A stretch of 42,084 nucleotides of DNA from NCBI RefSeq assembly GCF_000372725.1, contig NW_005201191.1, forward strand, positions 250,426 to 292,509, in the 5' to 3' direction. The DNA comes from Emiliania huxleyi CCMP1516 (Eukaryota). Both the position numbers and the translations under genes were made by a program. Below, one piece after another: positions 2,300 to 39,200 of this stretch. Position 1 is the stretch's first letter; each line of letters begins with the position of its first letter. A model generated the notes under the pieces. It was not told the DNA's origin. It saw only the letters and a list, made by a program, of their open reading frames with translations, and searched no databases.

Positions 2300-2999
2300 A
2301 TGGAGCCTCCTGCCGGGACCGAACCAACGCCTTGGCACCGACGAGGCCGCCGGGATGCTTTACCCCGGCACACGCTGAGGGAGGGTGTAGAGGATGTAGA
2401 GTGTAGAGCGCTGTAGAGTTGTAGAGCTGTAGAGCTGTAGAGCGCTGTAGAGCGCTGTAGAGCTTCCAGCCCGGCTGCGCCCGCCCGCCCCCGTCGGGGC
2501 CGTTATCCGAGACGAATGCGACGAGCGTCCTGGAATCGAGCCGCGAGGACTGTAGGGTGTCGAGCACCCGCCCGATGCCATCGTCGACCGCCTTCACCAT
2601 AGCCGCGTAGATGGCCTTTGGCTCGTTCCACAGCCGCGCGATAGTTTCGTTGCGATCGCTGAGCTTGGCCTGCCACGGGTTGTGCGGCGCGTTGTACGCG
2701 AGATAGATGAAGAAGGGAACGGCCTGGTCACGGCAGACACGGTCAAGACGCCCTTCACTGTTAGCCGGCGAGGGATGGGTGAAGAGCCGGGAGGCCTTGT
2801 ACTTCTTGATGAAGTCGACGGTGTGCCGCGTGAGCTTGTCCGTGAGGTACTCGTCGCCCGGCCGCTCCGGGCCCCAGTGGGGCAGCCAGTCCATACGATT
2901 GGCGCCCGGGCCGTCGTCCACCCCATTGAACCTGCCGTCCGCGTTCGGCCAGAAATCGCCCACCCAGTCCATGACGCCGTTCGCCTCGGTGAAGAGTTC
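2300..2999 (-). pseudogene. arylsulfatase-family (sulfatase) gene fragment, probably incomplete
   Basis: EYLTDKLTRHTVDFIKKYK|AVPFFIYLAYNAPHNPW...YAAMVKAVDDGIGRVLDTL...TLVAFVSDNG are sulfatase core motifs, with an in-frame GC-AG intron at 2795-2724. No N-terminal CxPxR signature is visible, and the C-terminal part is interrupted by the CTCTACA repeat. Confidence 0.7.
2375..2463 (-). repeat. CTCTACA(G)-rich dispersed element, copy 1
   Basis: ends ...CTCTACAGCGCTCTACACTCTACATCCTCTACACCCTCCCTCAG, the same terminus as 40830-40918 in opposite orientation. Confidence 0.85.
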
Positions 3000-3533
3000 C
3001 TGAACGGGCGCAAGCAAAAGCAGGCTGAAGCGGGGGAGGGCGGGCGCGAAAGTGGACGGTGGATTGCTTGCGCGCGAATGCCGCGCAGCCAGGGGCCCAT
3101 AGGGGTCACGCGGAGGGAGGCGCTGTTGGCGGCGGAGGAGGTGGAGGAGGCCGCACGGGCGGCGGAGAAGGCGCGGGCGGCGGAGGGGGGGAAGGGCGGC
3201 GGCAGCGGGCGGCAGTCCCGCGAGGCACGCCGGCGGAAGGGTTCGTCTTCGCGGGGGCGGGGTGCGCACTGCGCGCCGCGAGGATGAGGAGCCTGAGCCA
3301 GGGGAGGGTTGGGAAGGGGGGGCGAGGCCGGAGGAGTATGACGGCCTCTTCGACGGCCCATAAGGGGCCGTTGTCTGCTGTGCCTTTTATGGTGCTAGTT
3401 CGTGCCAGTCTGCTGTGAGAGGGGCTTTTGGTAGAATTCTTCTGGCAAAGGAAGTGGCGCCCGGCTCGACCACTGCTCCTTCCCGCTAGAAGTCCTCCAC
3501 CTCGACGCTCCCGCGGCCGGCTCCCTCCGGCCA

Positions 3534-4612
3534 ATGCTCACAACCCTCTCCTCTGCTGCTTGTTTTGCGCTTGCGCTCCCGCTCGCCGTAGCCCGCGCTG
3601 TCAGCGACACTCTGCTCTCCCTCCTGAATTCTCCCACTCAGCCGAGCGCCACCTTTGCGCTGCCCACCCCGCTCGGCCCGACGTCTAAGCTCGCAGCAGA
3701 GCACGCGGCCGAGCTCGCCTGGCTGCGAGATCGCCTCGGAGCCGACGGCGCCGCGGCCCGCGATAGCTGGCTGCTGCGCATGCTGTCGAGCTGCGATTGG
3801 GACCTGCAGACGGCGCTCCGCCGGTGCGAGGCTTCGCTGGCGCTGCGGAGGGAGGTCGGTTACGACGCGATTGCTGCCTTCGTGCGCGCGCACCCGGCGC
3901 CGGAGGAGTGGCCGCACGGCGAGGCGATCATGCGGCTGCTCCCACGATACATTGCAAGGACGAGCGCCGGAGTGGTCGTCGTGGCGATCGAGGACTGCGA
4001 CTACGAGCTGGCGCTCAAGTGCCTGAGTCCGGAGGCGGTGCGCCAGTTCTGGCTGCACAAGTTGGTGTACCTGCTCGAGACGCTCGCGGACCGAGACGAG
4101 GCGGCTGGCAACATCGACGGAGCAATCTACATGATCGTCGACTCCACCTTCACCACCTCGCGGCAGGGGATGCCGCTGCAGTGGGTAGCGCGGATGATGC
4201 CCGGCATGCGGGACGCCGCGACGCTAGCGGGCTACCAGGCACGTGTTCGGCAGCTGCTCGGAAGGGGCCGAGGGAATGGCGGCTGAGCTTCGCCTCCTCG
4301 TCTGGCAGGCGCACGTGGGCGGCATCTACTTTTGCGGCTCCATGCCTCGCCGAGCAAAGCTCCTCTTTGCTCTTGGCGAGCGCTCCACCTCGCGCGCCCG
4401 CTGAATAAGTGTGCCCCACCGCTGATTAAAGTCGTTGCCGAGCAGGCAAGCTCGTCGCTCGCGCCTACTTCCGCCTCCACCCCGCCCTCCTGCACGCGGG
4501 CAAGGGCCTTGGCTACCTCATCCAGCCGCAGACCGACCCGGACCAGGCGGCGGCACTCAGCCGCATCTTCGAGCCCAAGCCGCTCCCCGTCTCGCTGGGC
4601 GGCTTCTCGTGA
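3534..4612 (+). CDS. CRAL-TRIO (Sec14-like) lipid-binding protein with predicted signal peptide; exons 3534-4238, 4309-4375, 4446-4612
   Basis: CRAL_TRIO_N-like DSWLLRMLSSCDWDLQTALRRCEASLALRRE. After removing two 70-nt GC-AG introns the protein ends LSRIFEPKPLPVSLGGFS* (LPxxxGG terminus). Hydrophobic N-terminus. Confidence 0.8.
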
Positions 4613-4979
4613 GCCCGTGCTCCCTGAACCCCTCCTTCAATGAATGGAGACCGTCGCAGCACGGCAGTTTTGTGCGCTTGGTTATCTCCGACTCTGTCTA
4701 TTGGGTATTGCGACCAGGGGCGGTGCGTGTAAGGCACATGAAGATGAGGAGATGACGTCATGGGACGAGAGAGAAGGTTAATGTGCTGTTGTTTTCACTC
4801 AGTCTTTTACCACTGTCTATTCATGGATATTCGGACAACGTCTCATGTGAGATGTGTCGTGTGTGGGCATGTCACGAGGGGAAGGAAATACGCGGCCCGG
4901 CAGGACGCTCCGGCAGACGGCAAGAACCAAGATACGTCGCCGGCCCAGCGACAGGAAGCGCAGGAAAACAAAAAGAACA

Positions 4980-6240
4980 AGACCAAGAGCATGGAGACGA
5001 GGGAAGGCGCGAGGCGCTCCGCCGACAAGCAGCAGAGGCGGCGGCGAAGTAACGACGGCCATGCTAACGACGGGCGGCACGGTGGTAGGGGCGAAGGTAG
5101 GCCCCTCTAGCATATCCGTTTCAACTGCAGCTGCACCGGCACCTGTTGCTGAGGTGTCAGCAGCATCGAACGAGCCGAAGCAAGGCACGCGGGCGACGCA
5201 CTTCGTTCGCTACGAGGAGGTACAATTAGGCAAGGCAGCTGCGCAGGTGATGGTCCTATTCGCAGAGAAAGGAGTCAAGGAAGGCCAAGAAATCACATGG
5301 TCATATGGGGACTCATACAGGAGCAACCGCAAGGCGATGAGATACAAGGCGGATCCGAACGCAATAACACCCCAGCAAGCTCGGACGGCATTTGCGAGAT
5401 ACTGCAAAAAGATAGACGTGACGAAGGAGGAGCTAGCGTGGAACTTTGGATGCATATCGGCAAGCCAAAATAACGAGCCAGAGGCTGCCCTGGTGCGTGA
5501 GCTAATCCTGAGCAACAATAAGCGACTGTATCACGGAGCACAGAGCGCAGGCTGCAGCAGACAGGACGGCGGCGACGGCGGACATGGCAGAGACGAGTGT
5601 GAAACAAAGGGCGGCGGGGATGGAGGGCGGTAGCGACGGGGATGGTGACGGTGACGGTGGCGAGGGAGCGGAGGGGAAGGGGGTCCATTAACACCAGACA
5701 GCGAGAGGGGCAGGGAGGAAAGGAGGAGAGAGGAAGCCAACGGCGATGCCACCAGCAGCAGGGGACACGATGAACAAATAGACAACGACCAAGGCGATGG
5801 CGAGGACGAGGAGTCACGGGACGATGGCAGGCGAGACGAGGAGGACGGAGGCGAGGGAAGAGGCAGCGCCGCAGTCGACGGAGGCGACAACGATGGAGAT
5901 GGAAAGGGAGCGGCGACATGCGCAGAGGATGAGGATATAAACTGGGACGACGCAGCGGAGGGGATAGGCGAGGGAATCGAGGGGCCGGAGGGCTTTCGCG
6001 ACAGCGACGATGACGACGAAGGCAGGGGAGGAGACGGAGGGGCGACACGCAGGAGGAGCGAAATCGCGAACGGCCCGAGCAGAGAGAGCGACGACGGCGG
6101 AGCACGAGGGGGCAACGGAAACGCTACCGATGACGCGAACCGAGGCACGGGCGACGGCGGGGACGGGGACGGGGAGGGCGACAGCGACGTCGAGGTTGAC
6201 GCAACCGTATCGAGAGCGCCACCCAAAAGGAGACGAACCG
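4980..6240 (+). mobile_element. degenerate purine-rich repetitive element with a SET-domain-like fragment and an acidic coding tract
   Basis: 5680-6230 is largely duplicated at 29030-29425. The ORF contains NEP...VMVLFAEKGVKEGQEITWSYGDSY, resembling the SET C-terminal motif. Stops and frameshifts follow downstream. Confidence 0.5.
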
Positions 6241-6799
6241 ATTTGCTGTGGGGGGCGTCATCACCGCGCGCTCGCGTTCATATCAACGCCGTGTAGCGTT
6301 GCCCCACCAACGTAGTACGTGCCCTGCCTGCCCACCGCGGAGCCCACCAGCGCCCCGACCGCCGAGCGCTTCTTCCCCACCCGGCCTCGCCCCTCGCCCC
6401 CCGCGCGGCTTCGCCCCCTCGTTCTGCATATAGTGTAGCTTCACCTAGCGGATCACGGCGGCGGCGGGTGGAGCAGGAGCGGGAGGGCAGCGCTCCGCAA
6501 CGGATCTCGCCCACCATTTTGCGGTGGCTGAGCACCGACCAGGCGTTCCCCTCTCTTGTCGTACCGCGTCGTATTTTACCCCGCACACGGGTCAGCCTGC
6601 TAGCCACGTATCCACGCAAGCGTGGTCCGCGCGCATGGCAAGCGTGCGAGTCGCCAGCCAGCTGTGAAAAAGTCCAACGTGGGGGGGGCTGCTCGGAACC
6701 GAGCGTCTTTGCCAGTGCGCCACAGTTCCCGTGCCCAGTGTTGTGCGAGGGTACGCCACCGCTGTGCTCCTCGAGCGCGCTCTCGGCGCTCTCGCTAAT

Positions 6800-8716
6800 A
6801 TGGTTCGCTCCGGCGGCTCGGGCAGACCCTACTCCCGCGAAGAAATCTGCTGGGGCTCCTTCGAGCGCAACACGGGTGCGTGGTGTCCGTTCACCGAGCA
6901 GGACGCCATCGAGGCCGCCTATCAGGCGAACGAGGCGTCGATCCACCTCCCCGCCTGCTTTGACGCGACGGTGCACTTTTCTGAGCCCCATTGCTTCCAG
7001 CGGACGCCCGCGGTCGGCTCCAAGCCGTCGGGGTTCCGTTCCGTCCTTCGCGGCGAGGTGACTGCTCAACCTCCTCCATAATCCCCCTGCGACCCATTCA
7101 CCGCCGCGTCCCATCGCTTCGAGGTGGGCAGCGTGGTGCGGCTGCATTACTGGGCGAGCAGCAAGACGTTTCGGCTCGACGCGCCGACGAACGAGCCGCC
7201 CTCGTACGTGGTGGATGTCAAGATCGAGGCCGCGCCCCAGGAGCGGCCGGTTGCCTGGCAGTGGCTCGATCTCCCCCCGAGCGCGCTCGCGTCTGCAATG
7301 GACCTCAACTGGCACTCGTTCGCGCCGGAGCACTCGGAGGCGATCGAGCAGGCGTCGAGGGCGACGATGGGCCGTGTGGAGATCATCATCGGTCTGACCA
7401 AGTACGTCATCCAAAACTTCAACGGCGCGTATGCCGAGCAGCGAAACGAGAGGACGGGCGCGCGCAGGTCGGTGCGGCGTGGCTACGCGTCGGATGCAGC
7501 GCCGCCCGCGGTAGCCGCAGCGGAGCGCGTGTCGGCACAGGCTGTCCGCACGGCCCTCACCCGTCGCCCGCCGTGCCGTGTAGGCGCCCGACGATTTGGC
7601 CTCAGACTTTTGCGGGCGCAGAGCCGCGGAGCCTCACCCACAGACAACAGCCCCGCCGAGACGACGCCTCCCCGAGACGAAGCCACGAGACGGATCCTCG
7701 AGACGGAACCGCACACGCGCCTCCCTCCTCCCCCTCCTCCCCCTCCTCCCTCTCCCCAGACACCCCTCTCCCCAAACACCCCTCGCCACACACCCCTCCT
7801 CCTCTCTCTGACCCTCCCGTCCTCCCTCCCGTGCACCACGCCTCGCAAACTCTCTCGCCCTCGTCCCCTGCCCGCCCTTCCCCACCTCAGCCTCCTCCCC
7901 TCCCCCCCCCCTCCCCCCCTCCCCCCCTCCCCTNNNNNNNNNNNNNNNNNNNNNNNNNNNNNNNNNNNNNNNNNNNNNNNNNNNNNNNNNNNNNNNNNNN
8001 NNNNNNNNNNNNNNNNNNNNNNNNNNNNNNNNNNNNNNNNNNNNNNNNNNNNNNNNNNNNNNNNNNNNNNNNNNNNNNNNNNNNNNNNNNNNNNNNNNNN
8101 NNNNNNNNNNNNNNNNNNNNNNNNNNNNNNNNNNNNNNNNNNNNNNNNNNNNNNNNNNNNNNNAAAGGGGAAAAGGGGGGGCCCCCCCCCCCCCCCTCCC
8201 TCCTTCCCTTTTCTTTTTCTTGGGGGTTTTAAACCCCCCCCCCCCCCTTTCCCCTTCCCCCTTCTCCTGGGGGTTTTTACCCCCCCCCCCCCCCCCCGCC
8301 CAGGGGGTGCCCGCCGCCTGTCCGCAGCTTCCACCACTCTTGCATCCAGCATGTCCTCACCGCGCCGAACGCATACACGAGGAAGTGTCCGATCTGCCGC
8401 CGCACCCTGGCCCGCCCGCCCGTCGGACCCAGCTCCAGCATTGCGCAAGGACGACCGGCACCGGTCCGCGCCACTGTCATAGCCGAGAGAGAGCCCGGGA
8501 GGGACCGCCAGCTCGCACTTCCCCAGCTCTTCACGGCCCGAGGTAAGCCACACACCTCGCTACTCCCCAGAACTTGCTCGGAACCTTCCGGGCGCGAAGT
8601 CGGGCCGGGGCCCGGCACGGTTCACACGGCGTTGACGGAGCGTGGCATCCCCTCCCCCCCCCCCCCCCCTCCCCCATCCCCAAGGCCTTCAGGGCTCGCA
8701 CCTCAACCTCTCATAG
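6800..8716 (+). CDS. tandem WWE + RING-H2 E3 ubiquitin ligase (Deltex-like order); exons 6800-7057, 7124-7510, 7584-gap, 8328-8542, 8685-8716
   Basis: WWE1 ICWGSFERNTGAWCPFTEQDAIEAAY...FRSVLR and WWE2 AWQW...NWHSFAPEHSEAIEQA...QRNERTGARRSVRR. The exon after the gap reads FHHSCIQHVLTAPNAYTRKCPICR, the second half of a RING-H2. The middle is lost in poor sequence and the gap. Confidence 0.75.
7934..8163. other. assembly gap with low-quality flanks
   Basis: run of N with homopolymer-rich flanks. Confidence 0.99.
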
Positions 8717-9598
8717 ACTAGCGCGCAGCGCCATGGCAGGCATTTTCTTCTCAACAACAAGTTCTGTGAAACTAGGCGCCGCGGCCGGGGACGGGGGGCG
8801 GCGGCCGCGTGGGGATGGACCCCGACGAGGCCCGCCGCTTCGTCAACCCGCGCAACCTCGGCGACTACTCCTCGTCGGCACAGGACGCCTATGCCGGCCG
8901 AGGGCCGTCGGCGCGTACGCCGTCGTCGCGGCGGTGGTTTTGATGGACGCACAGCCGGGCCCGGAGTCGTATCTCTGACTCGTCGTACGTAGTTGTGGCC
9001 TCGAGCGAGGCGCGCGCTTAAGACGCCACACACCGCTCAGATCCTCTCTCAGCCGCTCCGCCTCCGGCGGTGCGGGACAGAGGCTCAGAGCGCATGTGAG
9101 CGCTGAATGATCGGCGCATAGTTGCTCGAGTTGTTTTCTTTGGCAGTAGCTCTGAACGCGCAAAGCGCGCGTGTGGCCGAAATTTAAAGTCTGCGTCGCC
9201 GGACGAAACCCGAGAGAGAATAAGCACACACTTTTGGACGTTGAATCAAGCCCACGTTGCTCGTTGGGGAGTGCAGTCGCGAGTCGGTAACCTCAGTCCT
9301 CACATCCATTCAAGCAGTTCGCCAAACGGCGGGGAATTCGTGGGACCAACCCGTCGGCGGAGCTCAAACTCACCTCAAACTCGTCAGTTACAATTACTCA
9401 GAGTAGACTCTGACTCACGCAGCGCGCTCTCGCTCCCCCCACGTACTCCAAATCTCTCTAATTCGCCAGAGTGTACTTTTGCGCAAGCCCAGCTTGCACA
9501 GCATGCAGCGATGCACAAGGCTCGCGCCCAGCATGCGCTACCCCCACCCCCGAATCCGTCACCGCGGCCGACGTCGCCACGTCTCGCGCCGGCCGGCG

Positions 9599-10316
9599 TC
9601 AGTTTTGGAACAGGAAGCGCAAGTCGTCCTCCGAGAGCTGCGAGAGCGAGCCGATGTCTCCGCCGACGGTGCCCTCGAAGACGAGCCGCTTCTTGTCCTG
9701 CAGGCGAATGATGCGCTCCTCCACGGTGTTGCGCACGACAAACCGAACCTGCAAAGCGCGGGCGAGGGTGGCGCTGGTGGCGCGGGGGGTTTTGGGGGTG
9801 GGTGGTGGGCGGTGGTGGGTGGGTGGAGGGTGGGTGGGGTGGGTGGGGGGCAGCTGCGGTGGGCCGCAGGGGGTTGGCAGTGGCGATGGCGCACCGCGCG
9901 GATGGGCTTGTGTTGGCCGAGGCGGTGGGCGCGGTCGATGGCTTGGTACTCGGCGGCAGGGTTCCACCACGGGTCCATCAGGTAGATGTGGGACGCGACG
10001 GTCAGGTTGAGGGCGACGCCGCCCGCCTTGAGGGAGATGAGGATCACCTTTGTGCCGAAGTCGTCCTTGAAGGAGTTGAGCACCCCCTCGCGCGCCGCGA
10101 CGCTCATCCCGCCGTTGAGCTTGACCACCTTGATGCCCGCGCGCTGGATCCGGTACTCGAGCAGGTCGAGGAACGAGACGAACTGCGAAAAGACGATCGC
10201 CTTGGCCGCCGGGTCAGCCTCGCTCATCGCGTGCAGCTCCTCCATCAGCGCCTCCATCTTCGTGCTCGAGCGGAACTGGGCCATGTCCAGCCGGCCGAGG
10301 ATGCCCTTGAGCCGCA

Positions 10317-10353
<37 letters not shown>

Positions 10354-21322: not shown

Positions 21323-21413
21323 TGCCGAACTTCATGTTTTTCCATTGGCTGGTTGGCTCGACAGACCTTCTTGGGCAGACTATACGAGTAGTCGAGCGCG
21401 TCGGAGAGGTGTT

Positions 21414-21819
21414 TTTTTTGTTACACGAAAAAGAGGGCTACACACGGCCCTCTACGCTGGGGCGCCGGCGCCCTACTGGGCGCCCCCCGCTCCCTTCCCC
21501 TTAGAGCCCCCCATCCCACTAGCATTCCCCCGAGGTCCCTCGCGGTCGCGCGACGCCGCACCACAATGGCGCGCTGTGCCTCGTCCGCGAGCGCCGTCCA
21601 GAGCTGCACCGACAGTCGCTGCAGCGCAAACGGCATCCACTCGCGCGCCGACCACGACGTCTGGTCGTACTGCCACCACGTGAGCTTCCGGCCCGCCACC
21701 TTAGCCACCCGCATCAGCAGCTCCTCCACCCCCGCGCTCATTGCGCCGAACTCCTCGAAGAGCAGCGCCTCCACGCGGCACTTCCCCTCTGCGTCGGTGT
21801 ACTGGCCCTTTACATGTAC
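21414..21819 (-). mobile_element. 5'-truncated RLE/CRE-type non-LTR retrotransposon, family B, with poly(A) tail and 7-bp TSD
   Basis: KGQYTDA...LLFEEFGAMS...YDQTSWSAREWMPFALQRLSVQLW; 3' end GTAACAAAAAAA; AGGTGTT duplicated at 21407-21413 and 21820-21826. Confidence 0.8.
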
Positions 21820-21879
21820 AGGTGTTCCGGTGGGGGGGACCCACCTCCCCGCGCGGGGCCGCTCCGGGGCGACCCGGGC

Positions 21880-24110
21880 GCCCTCCGACCAAACTGCTCT
21901 ATTACTATCATATAACAGTACCTCGTCAACGACATTGCACCTGGACTAACAACGTCGGGGGGGCAGGCGATGATGGCATACGCCTGCTGTGTGAAGAGGC
22001 GAGTGGCATCGGCGGGCCCCCGTTGTCCGAACACAACTCGGCCTTCGATATTCGGGCAGTGCGGGAGCGGATCGAGGGAGATCGGGTGAACGAGGAAGCG
22101 ACGCGACTGATAGACAGCCTGCGACCTAGCGGAGCGCGAGGGGGAGGAGAGGCGAGGCCAGCGGCGAGCCCGGGCCCTGCCCCCCTACCTCCTTGGGGGG
22201 AAGCAAGGGCTAGATCCCCCCCCCGGAGCGCGGTGAACGATCGGTGCGTGGAGCCGCGGCTGGAGAGGCCGCAGGGTCGTGGGGCCGCCCCCGAGGCTCC
22301 ACACCAGGCGTCGCGGCCGCCAGTACCGCCACCGTACCCGCCCCCCCCACCTCCGCCTCCGCCCCCGCCGTTGGGACGACCGCAGGGTCAAGGGGCCGCC
22401 CCTGAGGCTCCACACCAGGCGTTACGGCCGCCAGTGCCGCCACCGTACCCGCCCCCCACCGAGGGTGGTGCGGGGCCGGCCGTGGGAAGGCCGCCGGCCT
22501 TCGGGCCCGCCCGGAAGCCGGGACCTGAGGGCCCCGGTCGAGACCTGGTATCTACTTCCGGGGGGGGGAAAAATCGAGTTGACTGTGCCCCGGTGGTGGG
22601 ATCCGNNNNNNNNNNNNNNNNNNNNNNNNNNNNNNNNNNNNNNNNNNNNNNNNNNNNNNNNNNNNNNNNNNNNNNNNNNNNNNNNNNNNNNNNNNNNNNN
22701 NNNNNCCTCACGGAATCGGTCCCTCGTTGTACAGCAATCGATCCTTCACACTGCCCGCGCGCTGCCAAACTTGGGGTCGAGAATCGGTCCCCAGGTTACC
22801 TGTGGCGCGAAGCTGCGATATGTCTCCCGCCCTCGGCGCGCCGACCGCGCAGCGGCGGCAGACCACCCTCCGGTTCGAGGGGCGCCTGGGGCTGAGCGGG
22901 CTGCCTCCGCCAGAGTTTGGCTCGCCCACCGGCGGGCTGTCACCCTGCCACGGGTCGCAAGCCCTCTGCCGGCCGGAGCGCAGGCTTCGCAGGCTTCCAG
23001 CAATTGGTCCCTTGGCAAGTGCGAATCGGTCCCCCTGGCTCCAGGAACTGATCCGGCACTACACCCGGATCTATTGCTGTTTACCTCATCTTAAAATAGA
23101 GACCCGACGGTACGGCCGCCAGTGCCGCCACCGTACCCGCCCCCCCCACCGCCGCCTCCGCCCCCGCCGCCGGCGTGGCCGTCACCGTACGGACCCGCAC
23201 GGATTCTGGGGGATCCGGAGCCGGCCCGCCGGAGGCTGGAGAACCCGAGGGAGGGGACCGAGGGGGGGGGGGGGGGTGCCGTGGGAAGACAGCGGGTCAG
23301 CCGGCGAACCGGAAGGCCGGGACCGGAGGGCCCCGGGTGAGACCTGGAGTCAACTGTCGGAGGGGGTGAGAGCCGAGCTGACTCGGCCCCTGCGAGTGGG
23401 GTCGGGACATACGAGCTCTCCAGGGGTAGACCCGTCGCGGCGGCAGCTGGACCACCGGGATCTGCGACAAGGAGGGCCACGCCTCCCCGAGCTCGATGAG
23501 GGGCCAGCGGAGGGGAGGGGCGAGCCGAGAACGATAGAGAGGCCGCGGATGCGGGTGCGACTCGTCGACTAGGGAGAGCCGGCCCGACCTCCCTGGGCGG
23601 GGAGGCGACGCGACCCTATGCCACCGCCCTCGCCCGGGGAAGCCTCGGCCGGGCCGTCGACACTCTCGGAACCGGTGGAGCCGGGAGCTGGCGAAGACGA
23701 AAGGCGGCAGCGGAGAAAGCGACACCAACAACGAGGGAAACGAGGGGGGGACCACACCGGCCGTCGTATGACGCTCGGCAAGCGAACAAGAGAGCGAATC
23801 GGGGAGAACCGGAGCCCCGGGAGGATGGAAGGTGGAGCTCCGGGACCGCGGACTAAGCAAGTGTCTGTCGGTTTGGGCGTGGTGTGAAGTGTAATGCTGG
23901 TGTAATGTGTCCACTAGCTCCGAGTAGAGGGGGGGCGTCCTGCAGTTAAGGGGAAACCCGGTACGCGGGTCCTCAACCCTCGGAGAACCGTGTTTACCTT
24001 ATGGCCCGCCCTTCCCCTGCGCGAACCCCCCCCCCCCCCCCAGGGGTCAGGGCTCTCTAGCCCGTCGCCCGATGCCGATCATCCCCGGCCCGCCCCCGCG
24101 CCAAATCTTC
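21880..24110 (+). mobile_element. degenerate repetitive element with Pro-rich internal tandem repeats; 3' part homologous to 32310-32892
   Basis: Internal repeats CGGCCGCCAGT[AG]CCGCCACCGTACCCGCCCCCC at ~22313, ~22425 and ~23113. 23473-24100 aligns by eye with the reverse complement of 32892-32310 (GPRLPE...TIERPR...DPMPPPSPGE plus a shared UTR-like tail). Confidence 0.6.
22606..22705. other. assembly gap
   Basis: run of N. Confidence 0.99.
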
Positions 24111-24317: not shown

Positions 24318-24933
24318 CTACTGACCCAGCTGCTCGCGCCCGCACGCCCTCCGGTGCGAGAGCATGCTGAGCTGCACGGCCCGGTGCGTCGCGTTGGTGC
24401 TGTGAGACTCGTAGCGCACCCTCTTCTTCTTCGCGACCGGCTCCCCGACCACCCGCGCGTACGCCACCGCCGCCTCCACCGCCGTGTCGAAGATGCCCAC
24501 GCTGCGCACTTTCTTTCCGCCCTTGTGCCGCACTCGAAAGCGGCTGCCCAACTTGTCCACGCCCTTGTAGCCGGTGCTGCTGTGGCTCGAGAGGTGCAGG
24601 CGCAGCCCCTCCGCCTCCGCCACGACGCCCGCCCGCAGGAGCGCCGCTGCCGCCTCGTCGGAGTCCGTCTGCGCGGCGGCGGAGTCCGCGCTGCCATCGC
24701 CGCCGTGGAACGGCAAGCCCATGCCAGAGAGCACGACCGCCACCTCCTCGGAGGGGCCCGCCCCGCCAGCCTCTGGCGCCAATGCGTGTGGCGGCTCGAA
24801 CGCGTCGGCGTCAGCGGCGGCGTCGGCGTCAGCGGTGGCGTCGGCGTCAGCGGCGGCGTCGGCGTCAGCGGCGGCGGCGGCGTCAGTGGCGGCGTCAGTG
24901 GCGGCGTCAGCGGCGGCGTCAGCGGCGGCGGCA

Positions 24934-24975
<42 letters not shown>

Positions 24976-26192
24976 GCGTCGTCGGCGGCGACCGCCTTCG
25001 CGTACGCCACCGCCGCCTCGACCGCCGTGTCAAAGGAGCCGAGGCAGACCGACCTCGCGGTGCCTCTGGGGCCCACCTTGCGATGCGCCAGGAAGAGAAA
25101 CCTCTCTGGCTCGCCGTGGGCAATGGACAAGCTGCGCCGGCTCACGCCCTTGTAGCCGGTCTTGGTTTGGTTGGAGAGGTGCAGGCGCAACCCCTCCGCC
25201 TCCGTCACCACCTCTTCTCCAGCGCATGCCACGGGGCAGCCCTCGCCGCCGGGGGCGGCGGGGGCGGCGGAGGCGGCGGCGGAGGCGGCGGAGGTGGACA
25301 ATTTCCCCCCCTCCCGGACCCTTGCCCAACCGGAAGTTTCGGAGGTGGCAGAGGTGGCGACGGCGGTGGCGGGGCCCGACAGCTGCTTGCCGCGTGCCGT
25401 CGTCGTCGTCGTCGCCTTTGCGTCGGCGTACGCGCGCGCGGCCTCCGCGGCGGTCGCAAAAGTCCCGAGACTCTTCCGCCTCCCGTCGACCGAGATTATC
25501 GCGCAGAAGCGATTGGAGCCCTGCATCTTCTGGACGCCCACGCCGTGCTGCTCCGACTTGCGCCGGTGGCGCTGCCGCAGCGACCCCGCGCCGCAGGCCG
25601 CCGCCGCCTCCGCCGCCTCCGCCGCGGCCTGACACGCCTCGACTCCAATCGCCCTCGCGTAAGCGAGCGCGGCTTCGGGAGCCGACAAATGGCTGCCGAG
25701 GTGCGTCCGCTTGCCGTCGATGAACGCCTCCGCCGTAAACTTCTTGTGGGAGGGGGTGACCCCGCGGTACCCAGACGCGCTATCGGAGCGAAGCAGCACG
25801 AGGCCCTCGGCGCGCGCGACTTCGTCGGCCTCATCGGCTGTCAACGGCTGCGTGTTCCGCTGGCGTGCCGCTTCGGCCGCCTCGGCCGCCGCGCGTGCAC
25901 TGCCCTCCGGGCCCATGATGGTGGCTACCGCGATGGCCGCTTCGGCGACGCTGTCGAACGTGCCGCCGTAAATCGCCGTCCCCTGCCAATGGAAGTGCGC
26001 CTTGAACTTGCCTTGGCATTCTTGGACGCCGCGGAAGCCGGTTGCGTTGGGTCCCGGCACGAGCGTGAGACCCTCGGCGGCGGCGCGCGCATGCGCCTCG
26101 TCGGCCGTGAGCGGCTGCTCCATGATGGCCGCGGCCGAGCCGAGCGCAGAGAGCATATGTAAGCGGGGTGGGATGTCAGCGGGTGGTACCAC
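24318..26192 (-). CDS. multi-AP2-domain DNA-binding protein (5 AP2-like repeats), intronless; start codon uncertain
   Basis: five repeats of the type G[FY][RK]GV...F.A......LG.F.TA.EAA.AYA, two preceded by AEGLRLHLS; Ala-rich linkers. Confidence 0.85.
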
Positions 26193-26268: not shown

Positions 26269-27267
26269 TGTACTTGTTACGTGAAAACCCGCTGGGACCC
26301 GGACGCCAGCACACACGGCTAGATTTCATGGCGGGCCGCCTAGGCCCTGGGGTCGGAGGCAGAGTCGGTGGGGGTGCCGCGCGCGGCGCGGGCTTCGCTG
26401 TCGGGGGCGTTTAGGGCGGGGTCGGGGAAGGAGGGTGGGGTCGGTCGCATTGGCGGCCGCGCGGCAGTGGCTGCAGGGGGGGCGGGAGGAGGTGGTGGCG
26501 CCGACCGCAATGGCGGCCGAGGACCCGACGTCGAGCGCCGGGCGAGATCGCGAGGGTCGAGGGTGAGCTCGAAGCCGAGGGCGGCGGCCGAGTTCTGGAT
26601 GGTGAGGGCGTCGGCGGTGACGATGGCGGCGGAGATGGCGGCGGAGTGGAAGGTGTAGTGTGAGCGGGTGGACGCGCGAGAGGTGCCATACGGCGTGTGG
26701 TCAATGGACCCACTAGCGCGTGCGGTCCTCGCAAGCTGGCGGAGGACGCGATCGAGGTCGGCGGAGAATGCTCCGGTCGACTCGGTCACGAGGAGGATGA
26801 CCGTGTGGCCCTTGGCGAGGGCGTCGGCATAATCGCCGTCCTTCGCTGCCACCCATCCGTCGCCGCTGACGCGGTCCAACTGCTCCTCCGTGTCCGGGTC
26901 ACCCCGTTGGGGGTGGCCGAGAACGACGACGGAGAGGTGCTCCTCAGTGTTGCCAAGCGCGATGAAGTGCCCGTCGGCACGGGAGGCGGCGCCTCCGCAG
27001 CGAGCAGAGCCGTTGCCCTTTGCGCCGGAGGGGAGGAACGGAGTGTAGCACTTGAACTCCCAGCATGTGGTCGTGGAGCCAAAGCGGATCATGTCTGGGA
27101 TGTGTCCCTTGTTGACGTGGGCGTAGTAGCCCCTCCGCTCAGCCTTGGAGGCGGGGGTCCCGTCGCCCTTGTCGGCCAGCTGGATCGAGCCAACTGGCAG
27201 GGCGTCGCTCGAAACGCTGGTGAGCGCACGGTGGACGGCTGCAAGTGCGGCGTTGTGGCGGTGGGTG
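26269..27267 (-). mobile_element. 5'-truncated RLE/CRE-type non-LTR retrotransposon, family C, with 10-bp TSD
   Basis: Intact frame with RHN...HIPD...WEFK (PD-(D/E)xK endonuclease pattern)...GDYADAL...LLVTESTGAF. GCGCCGTGTG is duplicated at 26259-26268 and 27268-27277. 3' end GTAACAAGTACA. Confidence 0.85.
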
Positions 27268-27320
27268 GCGCCGTGTGGTTGCCTAGTTTTGCCTGTTGTT
27301 GCCGCTCTCGCACTCTGTGC

Positions 27321-27936
27321 ATGCAGCAGTGCATTCACGACCACTTCTTCAACCACCGCGCCGAGCTTCTGCTACCCTGCGCGACCGCCGCCGCCGCCAC
27401 CGCCGCCGAGGGCGAGCCGCTCCTTTCCAGCGAGGCCTTCTGGCGTGTGAGCGGCCCGCTCACCGCGCTGCTGTCGCCCGACTTCCTGCTACCACACCTG
27501 CGAGGCGGGAGCCTGCTTGCGCTCGCGGCGACCGCGCTCGACGGAGGCGGCAGTCTCGCGCTCACGCCTCGCGGCGATCTCCTCATCGTGTGCAGTGCAC
27601 GCCTGTACGAGTCGCTCGGTCTGGCGGGCCTGGGCTCGGCGCACGGCGTTCGGGGCGAGCGGTACTGCGTGCGCCTGCGGTGCCTCGACCCCGCCTTTGC
27701 GCCGGGCGGCAAGGCGTGCGCGAAGCTGGTGCGCGCTGCAGCCGCAGCGCCGTCAGGCTCCGAGAGGGCCGGAGCCAGTGTGTTTCCTGCTCTAGGCGCG
27801 CGTCGCAGAGCGGCTCGGCCACGCGACGCTGCTGCTGACGTGGCACTTGGAGGGCGAAGCTGCCGCGCCGGCCTTCCCGCCCGAGCTCCGCGCCACCCGA
27901 TGCGACCTCGCCGCAGCGTCCCGACGGCTGGAGGGC

Positions 27937-27990
<54 letters not shown>

Positions 27991-28932
27991 AGGGTGGCGC
28001 ACGTCGTCCTTCCCTCTCCGACAGCCGCGCGGCCCCTCGCCCGCAGGCGTGCCGCTGCCGGACGTGTGCGCAGCACTCGGGGTCGCGTGGCCAGGCGGTG
28101 ATGGCGGTGGCGACGGCGGTGGCGGTGATGGCGGTGGCCGTGGCGACAGCGGTGGCGACGGCGGCGGCGGTGGCGATGGCGGCGGCGGCGGCGGCGGCGG
28201 CAGCGGCGGTGGCGGTGGCGACGGCAGCGGCGATGGCGCGGCGGACTTTATCGGCATCGTCGCCGCGCCGCCGCCGGCCGTCGCCGCGCGACCCGGCGGA
28301 GCTGCCGCCCTCCGCCAACTAGGTGCGTGGGCCTGCCATCTACTTAGGGCCCACCCGTTATTGATTATCAGAGAGAAGAGAGCCGCGAGTGGGTCGGCCA
28401 CGACGCTAATCAATGTTAGCTGAGGTTAGCTAAGTGTCAAATTATTGCTAGGCGAGTGGGTCGGCCTGGTGGCGCTCGACGCCCGAGAGGCTCTCGTGGC
28501 GGCGCCGCACCCGCCGCCAGTAGGTGAGGGCGGCGGAGGGAGGCAGGCACCGCAGACTTGGTGCGCCGCGCACACCTGTGGTGGGGAATAGGCGGGTGTG
28601 GCTTCCTGCACCTCGACGCGCTGCCATTCTGCGGAGGAGGAGGAGGAGGCGACGGCAGCGGCGGCACGCTGCTGGCTCGCTCCTTTGAGGGCCTGCTCGG
28701 CGAGGCTGCAGTGTGGCGGCTGGTGGCGGCGGCGACGGCGGCGATCGAGTCGGGGGAGGTGCCGTGGGCGGTCCTCACCGTGTGGGGCTTCGCCGACGCG
28801 CCCGTCAGCTGGGGCTTGTCGGAGCACGCTTGCGGCTCTGAGAATGACTTCACGTTGCTGCTGCTGCCCGGCTCGCAGCCGCGGGTGATGTACTCCGTCT
28901 CGCGCGATGCTGCCTTCCGGCCGCCGAGCTAA
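27321..28932 (+). CDS. RPP40: RNase P/MRP subunit p40; exons 27321-27728, 27796-27934, 28047-28322, 28452-28523, 28592-28932
   Basis: HFFNHRAELLLP, LLSPDFL..HLRGGSLLALA, LYESLGLAG, LGEWVGLVAL, VPWAVLTVWGFADAPVSWG.EH...ENDFT are characteristic of Rpp40; four introns restore the frame. Confidence 0.85.
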
Positions 28933-29927: not shown

Positions 29928-29931
29928 GGCG

Positions 29932-30577: not shown

Positions 30578-30602
30578 TGGGGCGGAAACGCGCAGGCCCC
30601 CT

Positions 30603-32251: not shown

Positions 32252-32308
32252 GAGCACTTGGAGCACTTGGAGTGCAGTCATCCGCACATCCAGGGCCGGG
32301 GAGCTAAG
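32252..32308 (-). repeat. short dispersed element with (CCAAGTGCT)n terminus, copy 2
   Basis: matches 29932-29991. Confidence 0.75.
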
Positions 32309-32309
32309 A

Positions 32310-32892
32310 AGCGCACCCAGCGGGCCGGATGATTGGCATCGGGTTGCGGGCAAGAGAGCCCTAGCCCCGGGGGTGCGCGTTCGCAGGGAAAGGGCCTTAA
32401 AGTAAACACAGGTCTCCGAGGGTTGGTTCCGTGTACCGGGTTTCCCCTTAACTTCAGAACGCCCCCTCTACTCGGAGCTAGTAGACATGACACTGTACAC
32501 CACTCACGTACACAGGTCCTCACTCAGCATCCCGTCTCAGGGTTCCTCCGCGCGATTTCCCGGGGCTCCGGTTCTCCCTGATTCGCTCTTTTATTCGCCA
32601 GCCGAGCGTCGCCTGACGGCCGCTGTAGCCGTTTCTGATGTCTCTTCTTTGGTCGAGGTCTCGCCTCCGCTTCACCTCCGACTGGTACTGCCGCCTCCGA
32701 GAGCGTCGACTGCCCTGCTGAAGTTTCCCCGGGCGAGGGCGGTGGCATTGGGTCGTGTCGCCTCCCCTCCCAGAGAGGTCGAGTCCGCTCTCCCTGGTCG
32801 GCGAATCGTGCCCGCACTCGCGGCCTCTCTATCGTCCCTGGCTCGTCCCCCCCCTCCGCCGGCTCCTCTCCAGGCTCGGGGAGGCGTGGCCC
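32310..32892 (-). mobile_element. truncated copy of the 21880-24110 element family
   Basis: inverted homology to 23473-24100, including CTAGCTCCGAGTAGAGGGGG and GTTAAGGGGAAACCCGGTAC. Confidence 0.7.
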
Positions 32893-33272
32893 GTTGACAT
32901 GTAAATTCTTATTTTCCCAGGACAAGCCGTAGGGTAAATTCCAGGTATACACGGGTTCTCCGCAAAATTCCCGGCATTTTGCCGATTTTGCCTAAAATTT
33001 GGCTGATTTTGGGCCCAAACCAGCCTCAGACTCGGCTCAGCGCCCGGCCCGGGGGCCAAAAATTTGACGATTTCCACGGAGTTTTCCCGGGAAAATAGAG
33101 AGGAAAAGAGAGGAAAGAAAAAAGGAAAGGCAAAAACAGACGGGGTGCGAGAGGCAAACCTGCTTTCTTTCCAGAGGCGGCCCTCTGGCGTTTATTTTCC
33201 GAGGTCAAGCCACGCCGTCTACGAGCCCACACGAGCCCACGCGTTCTGCTCCCGATCCAACGCCTGCTTACC

Positions 33273-36200
33273 ATGAGCGACCTCAAGCCGGAGAAGACGA
33301 TCGCCAAGAAGAAGGACAAGAAGGACAAGGCGGAGAAGAAGGCTGCCAAGCTTGCCAAGGCCGCCGCCGCCGCCGCCACAACAGACACCGCCGACAAGGC
33401 GGCGAAAAAGGAGAAGAAGGCGAAGAAGAAGGAGGACAAGGCGGACCGTAAGCGGCCGCGCGATGAGGAGGCGCACGTGCGCCGCTCTCCGCGCCTCGCA
33501 CCCGCGACTACTGCCGCCGCGCCAGCCGTTCCAGAGATGGCTCTCGCAGAGGCGGTGCCGTCCGCCGAGTCGGCAGACGCGTGGCGGGCAAAGCACCTGA
33601 TCGAGTCGTCCGAGGCGCTTCCCGACCCTGTGCGGGCCTTCTCCGACGCCCCCTTCGACACGCGCATCCTGCAGCAGTTCCAGAAGCTCGGGTGGACCGA
33701 GCCGTCGCCTGTCCAGGCGCAGGCCTGGCCGATAGCGATGGGCGGCAGGGACATCATCGCGGTGGCAAAGACGGGGAGCGGCAAGACGCTCGGCTTCCTG
33801 CTGCCCATCTTCCACCGCGTCCGCGACGAGCTCCCGCTCGATGCGATGACCGGCCCGCTCGCGGTCGTCCTCGCGCCGACGCGGGAGCTTGCGGTGCCTG
33901 CCGCCACCGCCACCGCCTCGCGCCTGCCGCCACTGCCACCGCCTCGCGCCTGCCGCTGCTGCCACCGCCTCGCGCCTGCCGCCACTGCTGCCACCGCCTC
34001 GCGCCTGCCGCCGCCACCGCCACCGCCTCGCGCCTGCCGCCACCGCCACCGCCTCGCGCCTGCCGCCGCCGCCGCCGCCTCCCGCCCGCCGCCGCCCGCA
34101 CGCCGCCCGCCCGCCGCCCACCCAGCCGCCCGCCCACCCAGCCGCCCGCCCGCCCACCCAGCCGCCCGCCCGCCCGCCCGCCCGCCCGCCCGCGCGGTGC
34201 CCGAGGCTCGAGGCTGAGGGGCGAGAGGCGTGGCGTACGTCAGGTGCAGATCCACGTCGAGGCGGAGAGGTTCGGCACGCCCGCCGGAGTCAAGGTTGCG
34301 TGCGTGTACGGCGGGACGCCTAAGGGGCCGCAGATCGGTGTGCTCAGCCGCGGCCGGCCGGCGGTCGTCGTCGCGACGCCGGGCCGCATCAACGACATCC
34401 TCGCGCTCGACTCGCCGCCAGTGACCGACCTGAAGGAGCGCGCCTCTCTCTAGAACCCGAGAGAACCCGACAGTACCCGACAGGACCCGAGAGGACCCGA
34501 GAGGACCCGAGAGGACCCGAGAGGACCCGAGAGGACCCGAGAGGACCCGAGAGGACCCGAGAGGACCCGAGAGGACCCGAGAGGACCCGAGAGGACCCGA
34601 CCTGAAGGCGACCGGCCGCCTCTCTTCTAGATGGGAGAGAGGCGCGAGACGCTCGGTGTCGTGCCACGGCTGCGGCACCGACGCGCTGTGCGTGTGTGGG
34701 CGAACGAGGAGAGGGGGAGACGGGCCACTCTGGAGATATGGGGAGATATGGGGAGATATGGAGAGACGGCCCACACACCGGAGCGACACACAGACACACA
34801 CAGCGCCGCTCACCGGCCGAACTGGCCGCGCCTCCACCCCCCGACTCGGCGGGCGGTGAGCGGCGCCCCTCTTCTCTGTTGACGGCGGTGTGGGGCTGAG
34901 CTAGGCGTGCCGCTTTCTCGTGCTCGACGAGGCCGACGAGATGTAGCCGAGATGCAGCCGAGATGCAGCCGAGATGCAGCCGAGATGCAGCCGGGAGACA
35001 GCCGAGATTGGCGAGGCGGCGCCGGAGGCTCGCCGAGGGTCGTCGTGAGTCGTCAGAATGCATTCTCTGCGAGAGTGGACTAGCTAGAGCTCGCACTAGA
35101 GGCCGTCCTCGCATTCGCCTTCCTGGGACCCAGCGCTGGCTTCTGACTGCCCTCGCTGTCTCTCCCTTCTCGACTGTCTGCGCTTGTGCGTCGTGGGTCC
35201 CGGGGGTTGTGTTTTTGGGTGCACTCATAGGCGGGCCGGGACGCTCGACGGGGTCTCCTCGAGTGAACGGAGATGTTAACCTCTCCCTCAATGAGCAGGC
35301 GGACCGGATGCTCGACATGGTCACAGCAGGAGGTGTGAAGAGACGCTGTTCACCGCCGGAGGTGTGAGCAGGCGGACCGGATGCTCGACATGGTCACAGC
35401 AGGAGGTGTGAAGAGACGCTGTTCACCGCCGGAGGTGTGAGCAGGCGGACCGGATGCTCGACGTGTTCACAGCAGGAGGTGTGAAGAGACGCTGTTCACC
35501 GCCGGAGGTGTGAGCAGGCGGACCGGATGCTCGACATGCTCACAGCAGGAGGTGTGAAGAGACGCTGTTCACCGCCGGAGGTGTGAGCAGGCGGACCGGA
35601 TGCTCGACATGGTCACAGCAGGAGGTGTGAAGAGACGCTGTTCACCGCCGGAGGTGTGAGCAGGCGGACCGGATGCTCGACATGCTCACAGCAGGAGGTG
35701 TGAAGAGACGCTGTTCACCGCCGGAGGTGTGAGCAGGCGGACCGGATGCTCGACATGCTCACAGCAGGAGGTGTGAAGAGACGCTGTTCACCGCAGGAGG
35801 TGTGAGCAGGCGGACCGGATGCTCGACATGTTCACAGCAGGAGGTGTGAAGAGACGCTGTTCACCGCCGGAGGTGTGAGCAGGCGGACCGGATGCTCGAC
35901 ATGTTCACAGCAGGAGGTGTGAAGAGACGCTGTTCACCGCCGGAGGTGTGAGCAGGCGGACCGGATGCTCGACATGTTCACAGCAGGAGGTGTGAAGAGA
36001 CGCTGTTCACCGCCGGAGGTGTGAGCAGGCGGACCGGATGCTCGACATGGTCACAGCAGGAGGTGTGAAGAGACGCTGTTCACCGCCGGAGGTGTGAGCA
36101 GGCGGACCGGATGCTCGACATGTTCACAGCAGGAGGTGTGAAGAGACGCTGTTCACCGCCGGAGGTGTGAGCAGGCGGACCGGATGCTCGACATGTTCAC

Positions 36201-39200
36201 AGCAGGAGGTGTGAAGAGACGCTGTTCACCGCCGGAGGTGTGAGCAGGCGGACCGGATGCTCGACATGGTCACAGCAGGAGGTGTGAAGAGACGCTGTTC
36301 ACCGCCGGAGGTGTGAGCAGGCGGACCGGATGCTCGACATGTTCACAGCAGGAGGTGTGAAGAGACGCTGTTCACCGCCGGAGGTGTGAGCAGGCCGACC
36401 GGATGCTCGACATGCTCACAGCAGGAGGTGTGAAGAGACGCTGTTCACCGCCGGAGGTGTGAGCAGGCGGACCGGATGCTCGACATGCTCACAGCAGGAG
36501 GTGTGAAGAGACGCTGTTCACCGCCGGAGGTGTGAGCAGGCGGACCGGATGCTCGACATGCTCACAGCAGGAGGTGTGAAGAGACGCTGTTCACCGCCGG
36601 AGGTGTGAGCAGGCGGACCGGATGCTCGACATGCTCACAGCAGGAGGTGTGAAGAGACGCTGTTCACCGCCGGAGGTGTGAGCAGGCGGACCGGATGCTC
36701 GACATGTTCACAGCAGGAGGTGTGAAGAGACGCTGTTCACAGCCGGAGGTGTGAGCAGGCGGACCGGATGCTCGACATGCTCACAGCAGGAGGTGTGAAG
36801 AGACGCTGTTCACCGCCGGAGGTGTGAGCAGGCGGACCGGATGCTCGACATGCTCACAGCAGGAGGTGTGAAGAGACGCTGTTCACCGCCGGAGGTGTGA
36901 GCAGGCGGACCGGATGCTCGACATGCTCACAGCAGGAGGTGTGAAGAGACGCTGTTCACAGCAGGAGGTGTGAGCAGGCGGACCGGATGCTCGACATGCT
37001 CACAGCAGGAGGTGTGAAGAGACGCTGTTCACCGCCGGAGGTGTGAGCAGGCGGACCGGATGCTCGACATGCTCACAGCAGGAGGTGTGAAGAGACGCTG
37101 TTCACCGCCGGAGGTGTGAGCAGGCGGACCGGATGCTCGACATGCTCACAGCAGGAGGTGTGAAGAGACGCTGTTCACAGCAGGAGGTGTGAGCAGGCGG
37201 ACCGGATGCTCGACATGGTCACAGCAGGAGGTGTGAAGAGACGCTGTTCACCGCCGGAGGTGTGAGCAGGCGGACCGGATGCTCGACATGTTCACAGCAG
37301 GAGGTGTGAAGAGACGCTGTTCACCGCCGGAGGTGTGAGCAGGCGGACCGGATGCTCGACATGTTCACAGCAGGAGGTGTGAAGAGACGCTGTTCACCGC
37401 CGGAGGTGTGAGCAGGCGGACCGGATGCTCGACATGGTCACAGCAGGAGGTGTGAAGAGACGCTGTTCACCGCCGGAGGTGTGAGCAGGCGGACCGGATG
37501 CTCGACATGCTCACAGCAGGAGGTGTGAAGAGACGCTGTTCACCGCCGGAGGTGTGAGCAGGCGGACCGGATGCTCGACATGTTCACAGCAGGAGGTGTG
37601 AAGAGACGCTGTTCACCCCCGGAGTGTGAGCAGGCGGACCGGATGCTCGACATGTTCACAGCAGGAGGTGTGAAGAGACGCTGTTCACCGCCGGAGGTGT
37701 GAGCAGGCGGACCGGATGCTCGACATGCTCACAGCAGGAGGTGTGAAGAGACGCTGTTCACCGCCGGAGGTGTGAGCAGGCGGACCGGATGCTCGACATG
37801 CTCACAGCAGGAGGTGTGAAGAGACGCTGTTCACCGCCGGAGGTGTGAGCAGGCGGACCGGATGCTCGACATGTTCACAGCAGGAGGTGTGAAGAGACGC
37901 TGTTCACCGCCGGAGGTGTGAGCAGGCGGACCGGATGCTCGACATGTTCACAGCAGGAGGTGTGAAGAGACGCTGTTCACCGCCGGAGGTGTGAGCAGGC
38001 GGACCGGATGCTCGACATGTTCACAGCAGGAGGTGTGAAGAGACGCTGTTCACCGCCGGAGGTGTGAGCAGGCGGACCGGATGCTCGACATGTTCACAGC
38101 AGGAGGTGTGAAGAGACGCTGTTCACAGCACGGAGGTGTGAGCAGGCGGACCGGATGCTCGACATGCTCACAGCAGGAGGTGTGAAGAGACGCTGTTCAC
38201 CGCCGGAGGTGTGAGCAGGCGGACCGGATGCTCGACATGTTCACAGCAGGAGGTGTGAAGAGACGCTGTTCACCGCCGGAGGTGTGAGCAGGCGGACCGG
38301 ATGCTCGACATGCTCACAGCAGGAGGTGTGAAGAGACGCTGTTCACCGCCGGAGGTGTGAGCAGGCGGACCGGATGCTCGACATGTTCACAGCAGGAGGT
38401 GTGAAGAGACGCTGTTCACCGCCGGAGGTGTGAGCAGGCGGACCGGATGCTCGACATGTTCACAGCAGGAGGTGTGAAGAGACGCTGTTCACCGCCGGAG
38501 GTGTGAGCAGGCGGACCGGATGCTCGACATGTTCACAGCAGGAGGTGTGAAGAGACGCTGTTCACAGCCGGAGGTGTGAGCAGGCGGACCGGATGCTCGA
38601 CATGCTCACAGCAGGAGGTGTGAAGAGACGCTGTTCACCGCCGGAGGTGTGAGCAGGCGGACCGGATGCTCGACATGTTCACAGCAGGAGGTGTGAAGAG
38701 ACGCTGTTCACCGCCGGAGGTGTGAGCAGGCGGACCGGATGCTCGACATGCTCACAGCAGGAGGTGTGAAGAGACGCTGTTCACCGCCGGAGGTGTGAGC
38801 AGGCGGACCGGATGCTCGACATGGGCTTCCAGCCGCAGATCGACTCGGTCCTCGCCCGCATCCCTCCGGGCAGGCAGAGCCCCTCTCTCCTCGCCCTCGC
38901 ACCACGCGGCCCCTCCCCGCGACCTTCTGCCGAGCCGCCCCCCCTCAGCCCCGCAGGCAGACCCTCCTCTTCACCGCCACGTGGCCAAAGGAGGTGCAGA
39001 GGCTGGCCGCCACCTACCTCCGCCCCGACGCGGCGATGCTCTTCATCGGCGGCGCCGAGCAGAAGCTGGTCGCCAACGCGGCCATCACGCAGACGTTTGA
39101 GCAGACCGACGAGGCAGCCGAGAGACCGCCGAGATGTAGCCGAGATACCGCCGAGACACCGCCGCGACACCGCCGAGATACCGCCGAGATGTGGCCGAGA

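Follow-up and report, generated by a model that had tools for sequence, protein, structure and literature searches.

Several routes of intron gain have been described (reviewed in PMC3443670 and PMC11282704; here and below, statements on earlier work reflect the available portions of the cited sources). In Daphnia pulex, introns attributed to the repair of staggered double-strand breaks are of the GT-AG type and show repeats of 4-12 base pairs (bp) (33 cases among 90 new introns; PMC4202315, reviewed in PMC3443670). The introners of Aureococcus, Symbiodinium and Polarella bring along a 3' splice site of their own but recruit the 5' splice site from a target duplication, which is 3-9 nucleotides (nt) long and fixed for each family, and their bodies are alike from end to end (PMC9860276, 10.1101/2020.10.14.339549). 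Tandem genomic duplication of an AGGT segment makes an intron that is exon copy throughout (PMC3443670), Replitron-1 of Chlamydomonas comprises elements of 0.9-3.6 kb with a transposase (PMC10288648), and repeats of 4-30 bp near the borders of 213 introns have been read as insertion scars (PMC11782384). Here we describe introns of the marine alga Emiliania huxleyi CCMP1516, many of which begin with a copy of the opening 10-35 nt of their own downstream exon. They were studied in a stretch of 42,084 nt with a GC content of 65% (contig NW_005201191.1, positions 250,426 to 292,509, forward strand; hereafter the window) and in independent metagenome loci, and the copy is confirmed as a strong tendency and a widespread feature.

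Contigs of RNA from two studies, aligned over positions 2400-13170 only, provided splice joints for 10 introns of the window; two further runs that retain those 10 introns (X9 and X1) were treated as DNA-like, though a DNA origin is not on record for them. One more intron was defined by a DNA joint and 16 by continuity of the reading frame, giving 27 window introns, and two that could not be defined were omitted (one across the gap near 7900, the other after 18880). The spliced genes keep open frames, and Pfam supports SNF2/RING helicase, DEAD-box, RPP40, FG-GAP, WWE and sulfatase assignments; a Hint match lies below the cut-off, and the gene at 4239, which an earlier reading made from the letters of the window alone (the sequence-only reading) had named CRAL-TRIO, has no Pfam match. 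A G stands on both exon sides in 27 of 27 introns, and the donors are GC in 14, GT in 12 and GA in one.

Positions 4-15 of these introns are identical to the cognate exon start at 46.6% of positions, compared with 30.1% for other exons (27 introns; permutation p 5e-5). The excess is also present in the RNA-verified introns (40.0 versus 28.6%, n = 10, p 0.006) and in those that the sequence-only reading had not named (37.0 versus 29.1%, n = 16, p 0.016; positions 7-20, p 0.08). GC-donor introns hold most of the signal (53.6 versus 30.3%), the others being marginal (p 0.047). Across the 27 introns, positions 21-40 are at background level, and so is the resemblance of intron 3' ends to the upstream exon (28.4 versus 29.2%). 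The sequence-only reading had presented the copied intron start as a window-wide rule. All ten strings that it quoted occur where it placed them, and 8 of 11 named pairs reach p<0.03 when tested individually, the exceptions being the introns that start at 27935, 17622 and 16743 (see the table); what stands is a strong and real tendency rather than a rule, with a detectable copy in about a quarter of the introns.

For replication, 120 metagenome loci of the same species group were fetched with a repeat found in the DEAD-box introns of the window, and 115 of them (238 kb) were kept after four redundant loci and one with 43% GC had been dropped; the loci share repeats with the window, many at 87-100%. 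Introns were predicted by a gene finder that makes no use of intron/exon resemblance. Model B, built from window-trained predictions with one retraining round on the loci and a 58-nt minimum, placed 13 of 15 window predictions exactly, and repeated self-training drifted, donors being shifted beyond the copy (9-12 exact of 14-18 window predictions). With introns bearing the search pattern set aside and permutations stratified by phase, donor and GC, cognate identity was 40.8 versus 31.6% in model B (n = 152 predicted introns, z 8.8) and 36.9 versus 30.9% in model A (n = 132, z 5.5), and the excess was limited to offset 0 (0.40 versus 0.27-0.32 at other offsets). A score of at least 8 was reached by 36 of 179 introns (1.5 expected) and a score of at least 4 by 78 (34.7 expected); the surplus of ~43 of 179 is a lower bound, because the gene finder skips the best copies. 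At the intron 3' end, compared with the upstream exon, model B gave z 1.8, with a small excess at scores of at least 6 (12 of 179 versus 3.2 expected). Along the lines of the two comparisons that the sequence-only reading had proposed for RNA-verified introns genome-wide, cognate exon starts exceed permuted ones in the window and in the independent loci, and the 3' control is at background in the window, with the small excess in the loci just given. Shorter perfect runs showed no single length peak, and two sequence patterns had no match in viral contigs. In a bacterial assembly, two contig ends also carry the algal 11-mer repeat (L001:10001-10030 and L002:2-31); these ends, likely contamination or chance, were left out of the analysis.

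Some copies in the loci are near-perfect (30/31 in L015, 31/32 in L049, 23/24 in L058 and 19/20 in L043). An annotation-free scan, insensitive to repeats shorter than 13 nt, found at least 245 repeat pairs, and 151 inserts were left after tandem arrays, short fillers and edges had been excluded. Their density is 4.6 per nt of period at 62-80 nt versus 0.4-0.7 at 40-57 and 100-130 nt. Inserts with a period of 58-95 nt number 115, and in 41 of them the joined flanks are coding. These 41 coding events consist of a direct repeat of 13-38 nt, continuous in length, and a filler of 38-74 nt, nine of them being perfect, and they show a splice register on the coding strand in 25 cases and on the opposite strand in five. 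For 19 of the 25 coding-strand registers the junction is no more than 3 nt away from the left edge of the repeat, versus 41% in a simulation with random targets and filler ends (p 4e-4), and for the other six it is 8-24 nt inside the repeat. The asymmetry put forward in the sequence-only reading, in which intron 3' ends rarely resemble the upstream exon, is thus upheld by the background level in the window, but only as a bias. Among 87 high-identity events, 33 are without a splice register, and 19 of these 33 have a period of 62-79 nt, a hint that length is partly set by the process itself. In the copies, an exon A or T stands opposite an intron G or C 66 times and the reverse occurs 27 times, codon position being without effect. 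One gene in L049 (229-1091) holds five repeat-flanked units in less than 900 nt, in which one exon start occurs three times and four filler types are represented.

The fillers of the 87 high-identity events fall into at least seven classes: 17 consist of the searched 11-mer (a number shaped by the choice of the loci through that repeat), nine belong to a 29-mer family, eight are AT-rich, 7, 4 and 3 are built of three other 10-11-mers, six are telomere-like and 33 are unclassed; 9-11-mer satellites are among the types. The hexamer of the telomere-like fillers is presumably the telomere repeat of this alga, and one array of it sits at a contig end. Of 284 introns, 14 terminate in the 29-mer family at the same AG, among them the window intron 12787-12715, and a strong upstream copy is found at 5 of 17 family ends (0.1 expected); the 3' AG of the family is anchored, its left end is variable and its junctions show microhomology. 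A stable hairpin as the mark of this family is unsupported, the short, imperfect hairpin being no more stable than shuffled sequence in three of four copies. One introner family behind all introns was rejected: similarity is restricted to the repeat fillers, the first 13-38 nt being specific to each locus. In the sequences covered, no autonomous element was seen whose end consists of these fillers.

GC donors make up 56-65% in E. huxleyi and have been ascribed to high genomic GC alone (PMC4028052). In our set, young donors are GC:GT:GA = 15:7:3, coding GGC:GGT:GGA counts are 707:177:228, and the donor type tracks the first two bases of the exon (p 7e-9). This fits recruitment of donors out of coding sequence, together with a degree of selection for GT; most donors would be GC at birth because they would be drawn from GC-rich coding sequence. 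Donor/exon concordance and coding frequencies thereby support the link that had been drawn from exon-copied intron starts to the abundance of GC donors.

We propose that insertion at staggered breaks, with duplication of the target and patching by host repair, probably explains many of these introns. The direct repeat, the filler classes, the period of ~70 nt and the gradation from young to old copies are direct observations. A staggered DNA break would be patched in such a way that 13-38 nt of target are duplicated around an insert of 40-55 nt. Such insertions would strike widely, and in coding exons only those that splice out exactly one repeat plus the filler would survive: the left copy would have to supply G^GY or G^GA (^ marks the splice junction), and the end of the filler or the repeat would supply YAG. 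The branch point likely comes from the filler, which would put left-edge junctions at an advantage and so produce the asymmetry. After birth the copy would decay and repeats would expand. Most tentatively, the agent may be host break repair that copies abundant short repeats, and not one mobile element. The insertion process is likely still active.

Presence and absence can be compared at the sulfatase insert. It is skipped in DNA contigs of both DNA-like runs, in two variants whose shorter side spans 31-56 letters, and among 14 homologues 11 are without it, two read through and one is unplaceable. The insert-less homologues (P0002-4, P0006-10 and P0012-14) include relatives at 74-92% and others at 50-57%, one of which is labelled a planctomycete. 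One of the two routes that the sequence-only reading had offered was an insertion in which a long stretch of target, beginning at G^GY, is duplicated and a new AG is brought in. This route is supported by the young 13-38 nt repeats, by intron-containing copies and by the insert-less sulfatase copies and homologues; the duplication does not start at G^GY in every case, and in many the duplicate itself provides the AG instead of its being newly supplied.

A number of observations weigh against birth by insertion at staggered breaks. No RNA joint was present at sulfatase 2795-2724 among the matches listed, the copy there is only 17/27, and absence elsewhere could reflect loss in other copies. Among the matches listed, the two DNA-like runs lack none of the 10 RNA-verified introns and show none of their joints; four overlapping locus pairs contain no intron-sized gap (largest gap 20 nt). 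In 16 of the 41 coding events the detected repeat holds no register; on visual inspection, some of these have a decayed left edge and others are coding repeats. The introns of the loci are gene-finder predictions, and the loci were chosen via one repeat, so that such events may be over-represented; the 34 predicted introns bearing the search pattern show no excess (27.7 versus 27.6%, model B). Finally, the shared AG end of the 29-mer family is as compatible with an element whose end is defined as with selection.

This last point belongs to an explanation in which the same insertions are made by mobile-element machinery, either a Replitron-1-like enzyme or target-primed reverse transcription with short RNAs as templates (repeat tails or other introns' 3' ends). 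Long, variable duplications and the 3'-anchored 29-mer family agree with it, and in one case, the DEAD-box array, a reverse-oriented copy of the family ends within 1 nt of the same place. Replitron-1 itself targets RG, carries direct terminal repeats and makes duplications of variable length (PMC10288648). The marks of target priming, a long variable duplication and an insert with an anchored 3' end and a variable 5' end, fit one family, and selection for a terminal AG would give the same anchoring. The fillers are heterogeneous, 33 of 87 being unclassed and others telomere-like or AT-rich, the family hairpin is no stabler than shuffles in three of four copies, and no autonomous partner was found in the sequences covered; we regard mobile-element machinery as unlikely. 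Three open reading frame (ORF) fragments on the minus strand of the window (26340-27371, 21421-21945 and 15979-16398), judged by a motif, putatively resemble the C-terminus of restriction-like-endonuclease long interspersed nuclear elements, which for the first of them would speak for such machinery; the first two have no Pfam match, and the first matches only unnamed Atlas clusters, one of them from a haptophyte. In a more far-reaching version, which we put forward as a tentative and rather doubtful possibility, a dedicated and still-running enzyme would make a long-stagger cut and write in 40-55 nt from telomere-like templates or the 3' ends of other introns. Every product would then be ~70 nt long, spliced or not, and the enzyme would have made most introns of the genome and would account for the GC-AG majority; its products would escape introner screens because each starts with host exon sequence.

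The remaining explanations do without an insertion. The sequence-only reading had also considered that intron 5' ends are overwritten from the downstream exon or from complementary DNA (cDNA), which in old introns would amount to aborted intron loss with length kept near 70 nt. Overwriting would accommodate the anti-correlation of repeat and filler lengths (rho -0.64, partly forced by the period window) and the serial events at one junction (28323 then 28385 in the window; also L049). However, copies that include intron sequence (35292-38823 in the window; L009, L014 and L023 look alike) or upstream exon occur, and overwriting from cDNA does not yield them. Together with the six junctions 8-24 nt inside the repeat, the 33 high-identity units without a register and the uninterrupted sulfatase site of the homologues, these copies make overwriting improbable, if possible for old introns. 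A plain tandem duplication, in which an AG^GY stretch of exon is doubled and the rest of the intron later replaced by repeat expansion, has in its favour that both splice sites can fall inside the repeat and that the loci show the small 3'-side excess; it is already largely refuted, and in our view very improbable, given that perfect repeats flank fillers foreign to the local exon and common to several loci and that the upstream exon often lacks a terminal AG. Chance, through high GC, the G^GY...AG^G consensus, codon phase or the gene finder, might be suspected from the three named pairs that are not significant and from the weakly positive result for the 16 unnamed window introns, but it is hardly credible and is refuted at the level of the set by the stratified permutation, the offset control and the annotation-free scan; moreover, the gene finder errs by placing donors beyond the copy, which removes signal. 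Insertion at staggered breaks with repair by the host is thus the explanation that we prefer.

Table. Introns, copies and repeats of the window discussed in the text (positions count from the first letter of the window).
Feature	Position	Strand	Evidence and remarks
72-nt GC..AG insert, sulfatase fragment	2724..2795	-	In frame, no stop; first 27 nt match next exon 17/27, p 0.012
70-nt GC-AG intron, start resembles next exon at 2-nt offset	4239..4308	+	RNA joint; p 0.012
70-nt GC-AG intron, weak resemblance	4376..4445	+	RNA joint
22-nt decayed copy (18/22) of next exon start, SNF2/RING helicase gene	12766..12787	-	
73-nt intron	12715..12787	-	RNA joint; GC donor supplied by the 22-nt copy
29-mer family filler ending in acceptor AG	12715..12765	-	Shared with 3' ends of other introns
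75-nt GC-AG intron beginning with a gapped copy of next exon	13053..13127	-	RNA joint, two studies; p 0.004
72-nt GC-AG intron, resemblance at chance level	16743..16814	+	Frame only; p 0.27
160-nt GC-AG intron, resemblance borderline	17622..17781	+	Frame only; p 0.05
64-nt GC-AG intron, FG-GAP/Hint gene, 18/22 copy and AT-richer filler	18602..18665	+	Frame only
67-nt GT-AG intron, RPP40, 10/13 copy, exon starts GC	27729..27795	+	Frame only
112-nt GC-AG intron, RPP40, 12/14 match in CCG run	27935..28046	+	p 0.07
129-nt GT-AG intron, RPP40, older 11/15 copy at start	28323..28451	+	
Younger nested 67-nt unit at same junction, 15/15 exon-start copy and AT-rich filler ending AG	28385..28451	+	
Intron with probable GA donor (GA-AG), DEAD-box gene, copy-like start, 10-mer repeats	34436..34904	+	Frame only
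3871-nt GC-AG intron, DEAD-box gene, 9/12 start copy, then 11-mer repeats and array	34932..38802	+	
Array, 48.4 copies of 73-nt unit, 98% alike	35292..38823	+	
83-nt GC-AG intron, DEAD-box gene, gapped start copy	38874..38956	+	Frame only; p 0.008

The unit of the DEAD-box array is composed of the last 7 nt of the intron, the first 21 nt of the exon and 45 nt of the 29-mer family in reverse orientation. Units end in AG and the next unit begins with GC; judged from its letters, splicing could take the array out as ~48 adjoining introns of modal length. The preceding intron of this gene holds, near 34595-34607, a second copy of the end of the upstream exon. Elsewhere in the window, the end of a repeated element, 90 nt long, is present in two inverted copies (2375-2464 and 40829-40918), and in the two DNA-like runs the contig depth in the bin of this element end exceeds single-copy depth several hundred times. 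The gene at 16316-18880 combines FG-GAP repeats, a proline-rich stalk and a Hint-like domain. Two intron-less ORFs on the minus strand (24318-26123 and 1678-1850) contain repeated domains, which we take to be AP2-like, one being fused upstream of ankyrin-like repeats. A further intron-less frame of 519 codons (19772-21331, minus strand) has a lower GC content and a codon use unlike that of the neighbouring genes, and its C-terminal half is presumably glycosyltransferase-like.

Most gained introns have no known source, and here birth, decay and repeated events can be read at high density. Since the alga is abundant and many strains have been sequenced, the route can be tested by population comparison, and it offers a mechanistic account of the high share of GC donors in E. 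huxleyi. In practice, gene finders extend exons into the copied intron start, and introner screens based on similarity would miss such introns.

The sequence-only reading had suggested that a pattern of this density might be undescribed. For the long, in-register pattern this agrees with our search by title and opening text, with most of the subscription literature outside it, which found no description of long in-register duplications in haptophyte introns; in their available parts, 10.1101/2021.10.25.465678 and PMC10290126 add nothing on this pattern. The suggestion does not extend to insertion as such. The main text of neither introner survey mentions E. huxleyi, but their supplements list 79 initial elements for it and three small families of 5-45 copies, unclassified or of the long terminal repeat type, with duplications of 2-4 nt where given. 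One listed family, which may or may not be the 29-mer family, is 70 nt long with 10-bp terminal repeats. Intron gain by insertion in this lineage is therefore not wholly unreported; what is new here is a variety of introns, probably born of insertion, whose duplications are long and of varying length and whose fillers are mixed.

Among the systems described, the Daphnia introns share with ours a direct repeat common to one end of the intron and the adjoining exon, a filler of unclear source and serial events at one site, whereas the repeats here are 13-38 nt long and mostly join the intron start to the next exon, the period lies near 70 nt and filler classes recur. The Daphnia work rests on presence and absence among alleles, seen here only at the sulfatase insert. 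As in introners, the intron start equals the start of the next exon, GC and GA donors come from coding sequence, several registers are possible, and one splice site is co-opted from the duplication (25 of 41 coding events, together with donor/exon concordance). Unlike introners, the present inserts vary widely in duplication length, and their fillers are short repeat pieces of many kinds; likeness over nearly the full length and a fixed duplication of 3-9 nt were not found, repeats shorter than 13 nt lying outside the scan. The repeats of PMC11782384 lie anywhere within 40 bp of intron borders, and its available text contains no in-register test and does not mention Emiliania or haptophytes. 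With Replitron-1 our inserts share insertion after RG, a duplication of variable length and, in one filler family, direct terminal repeats; the available account does not report it as a source of introns, and no such enzyme turned up here, where no search aimed at a transposase was made. Both splice sites can derive from the duplicated segment, as in AGGT duplication, but here over half of the intron is foreign filler.

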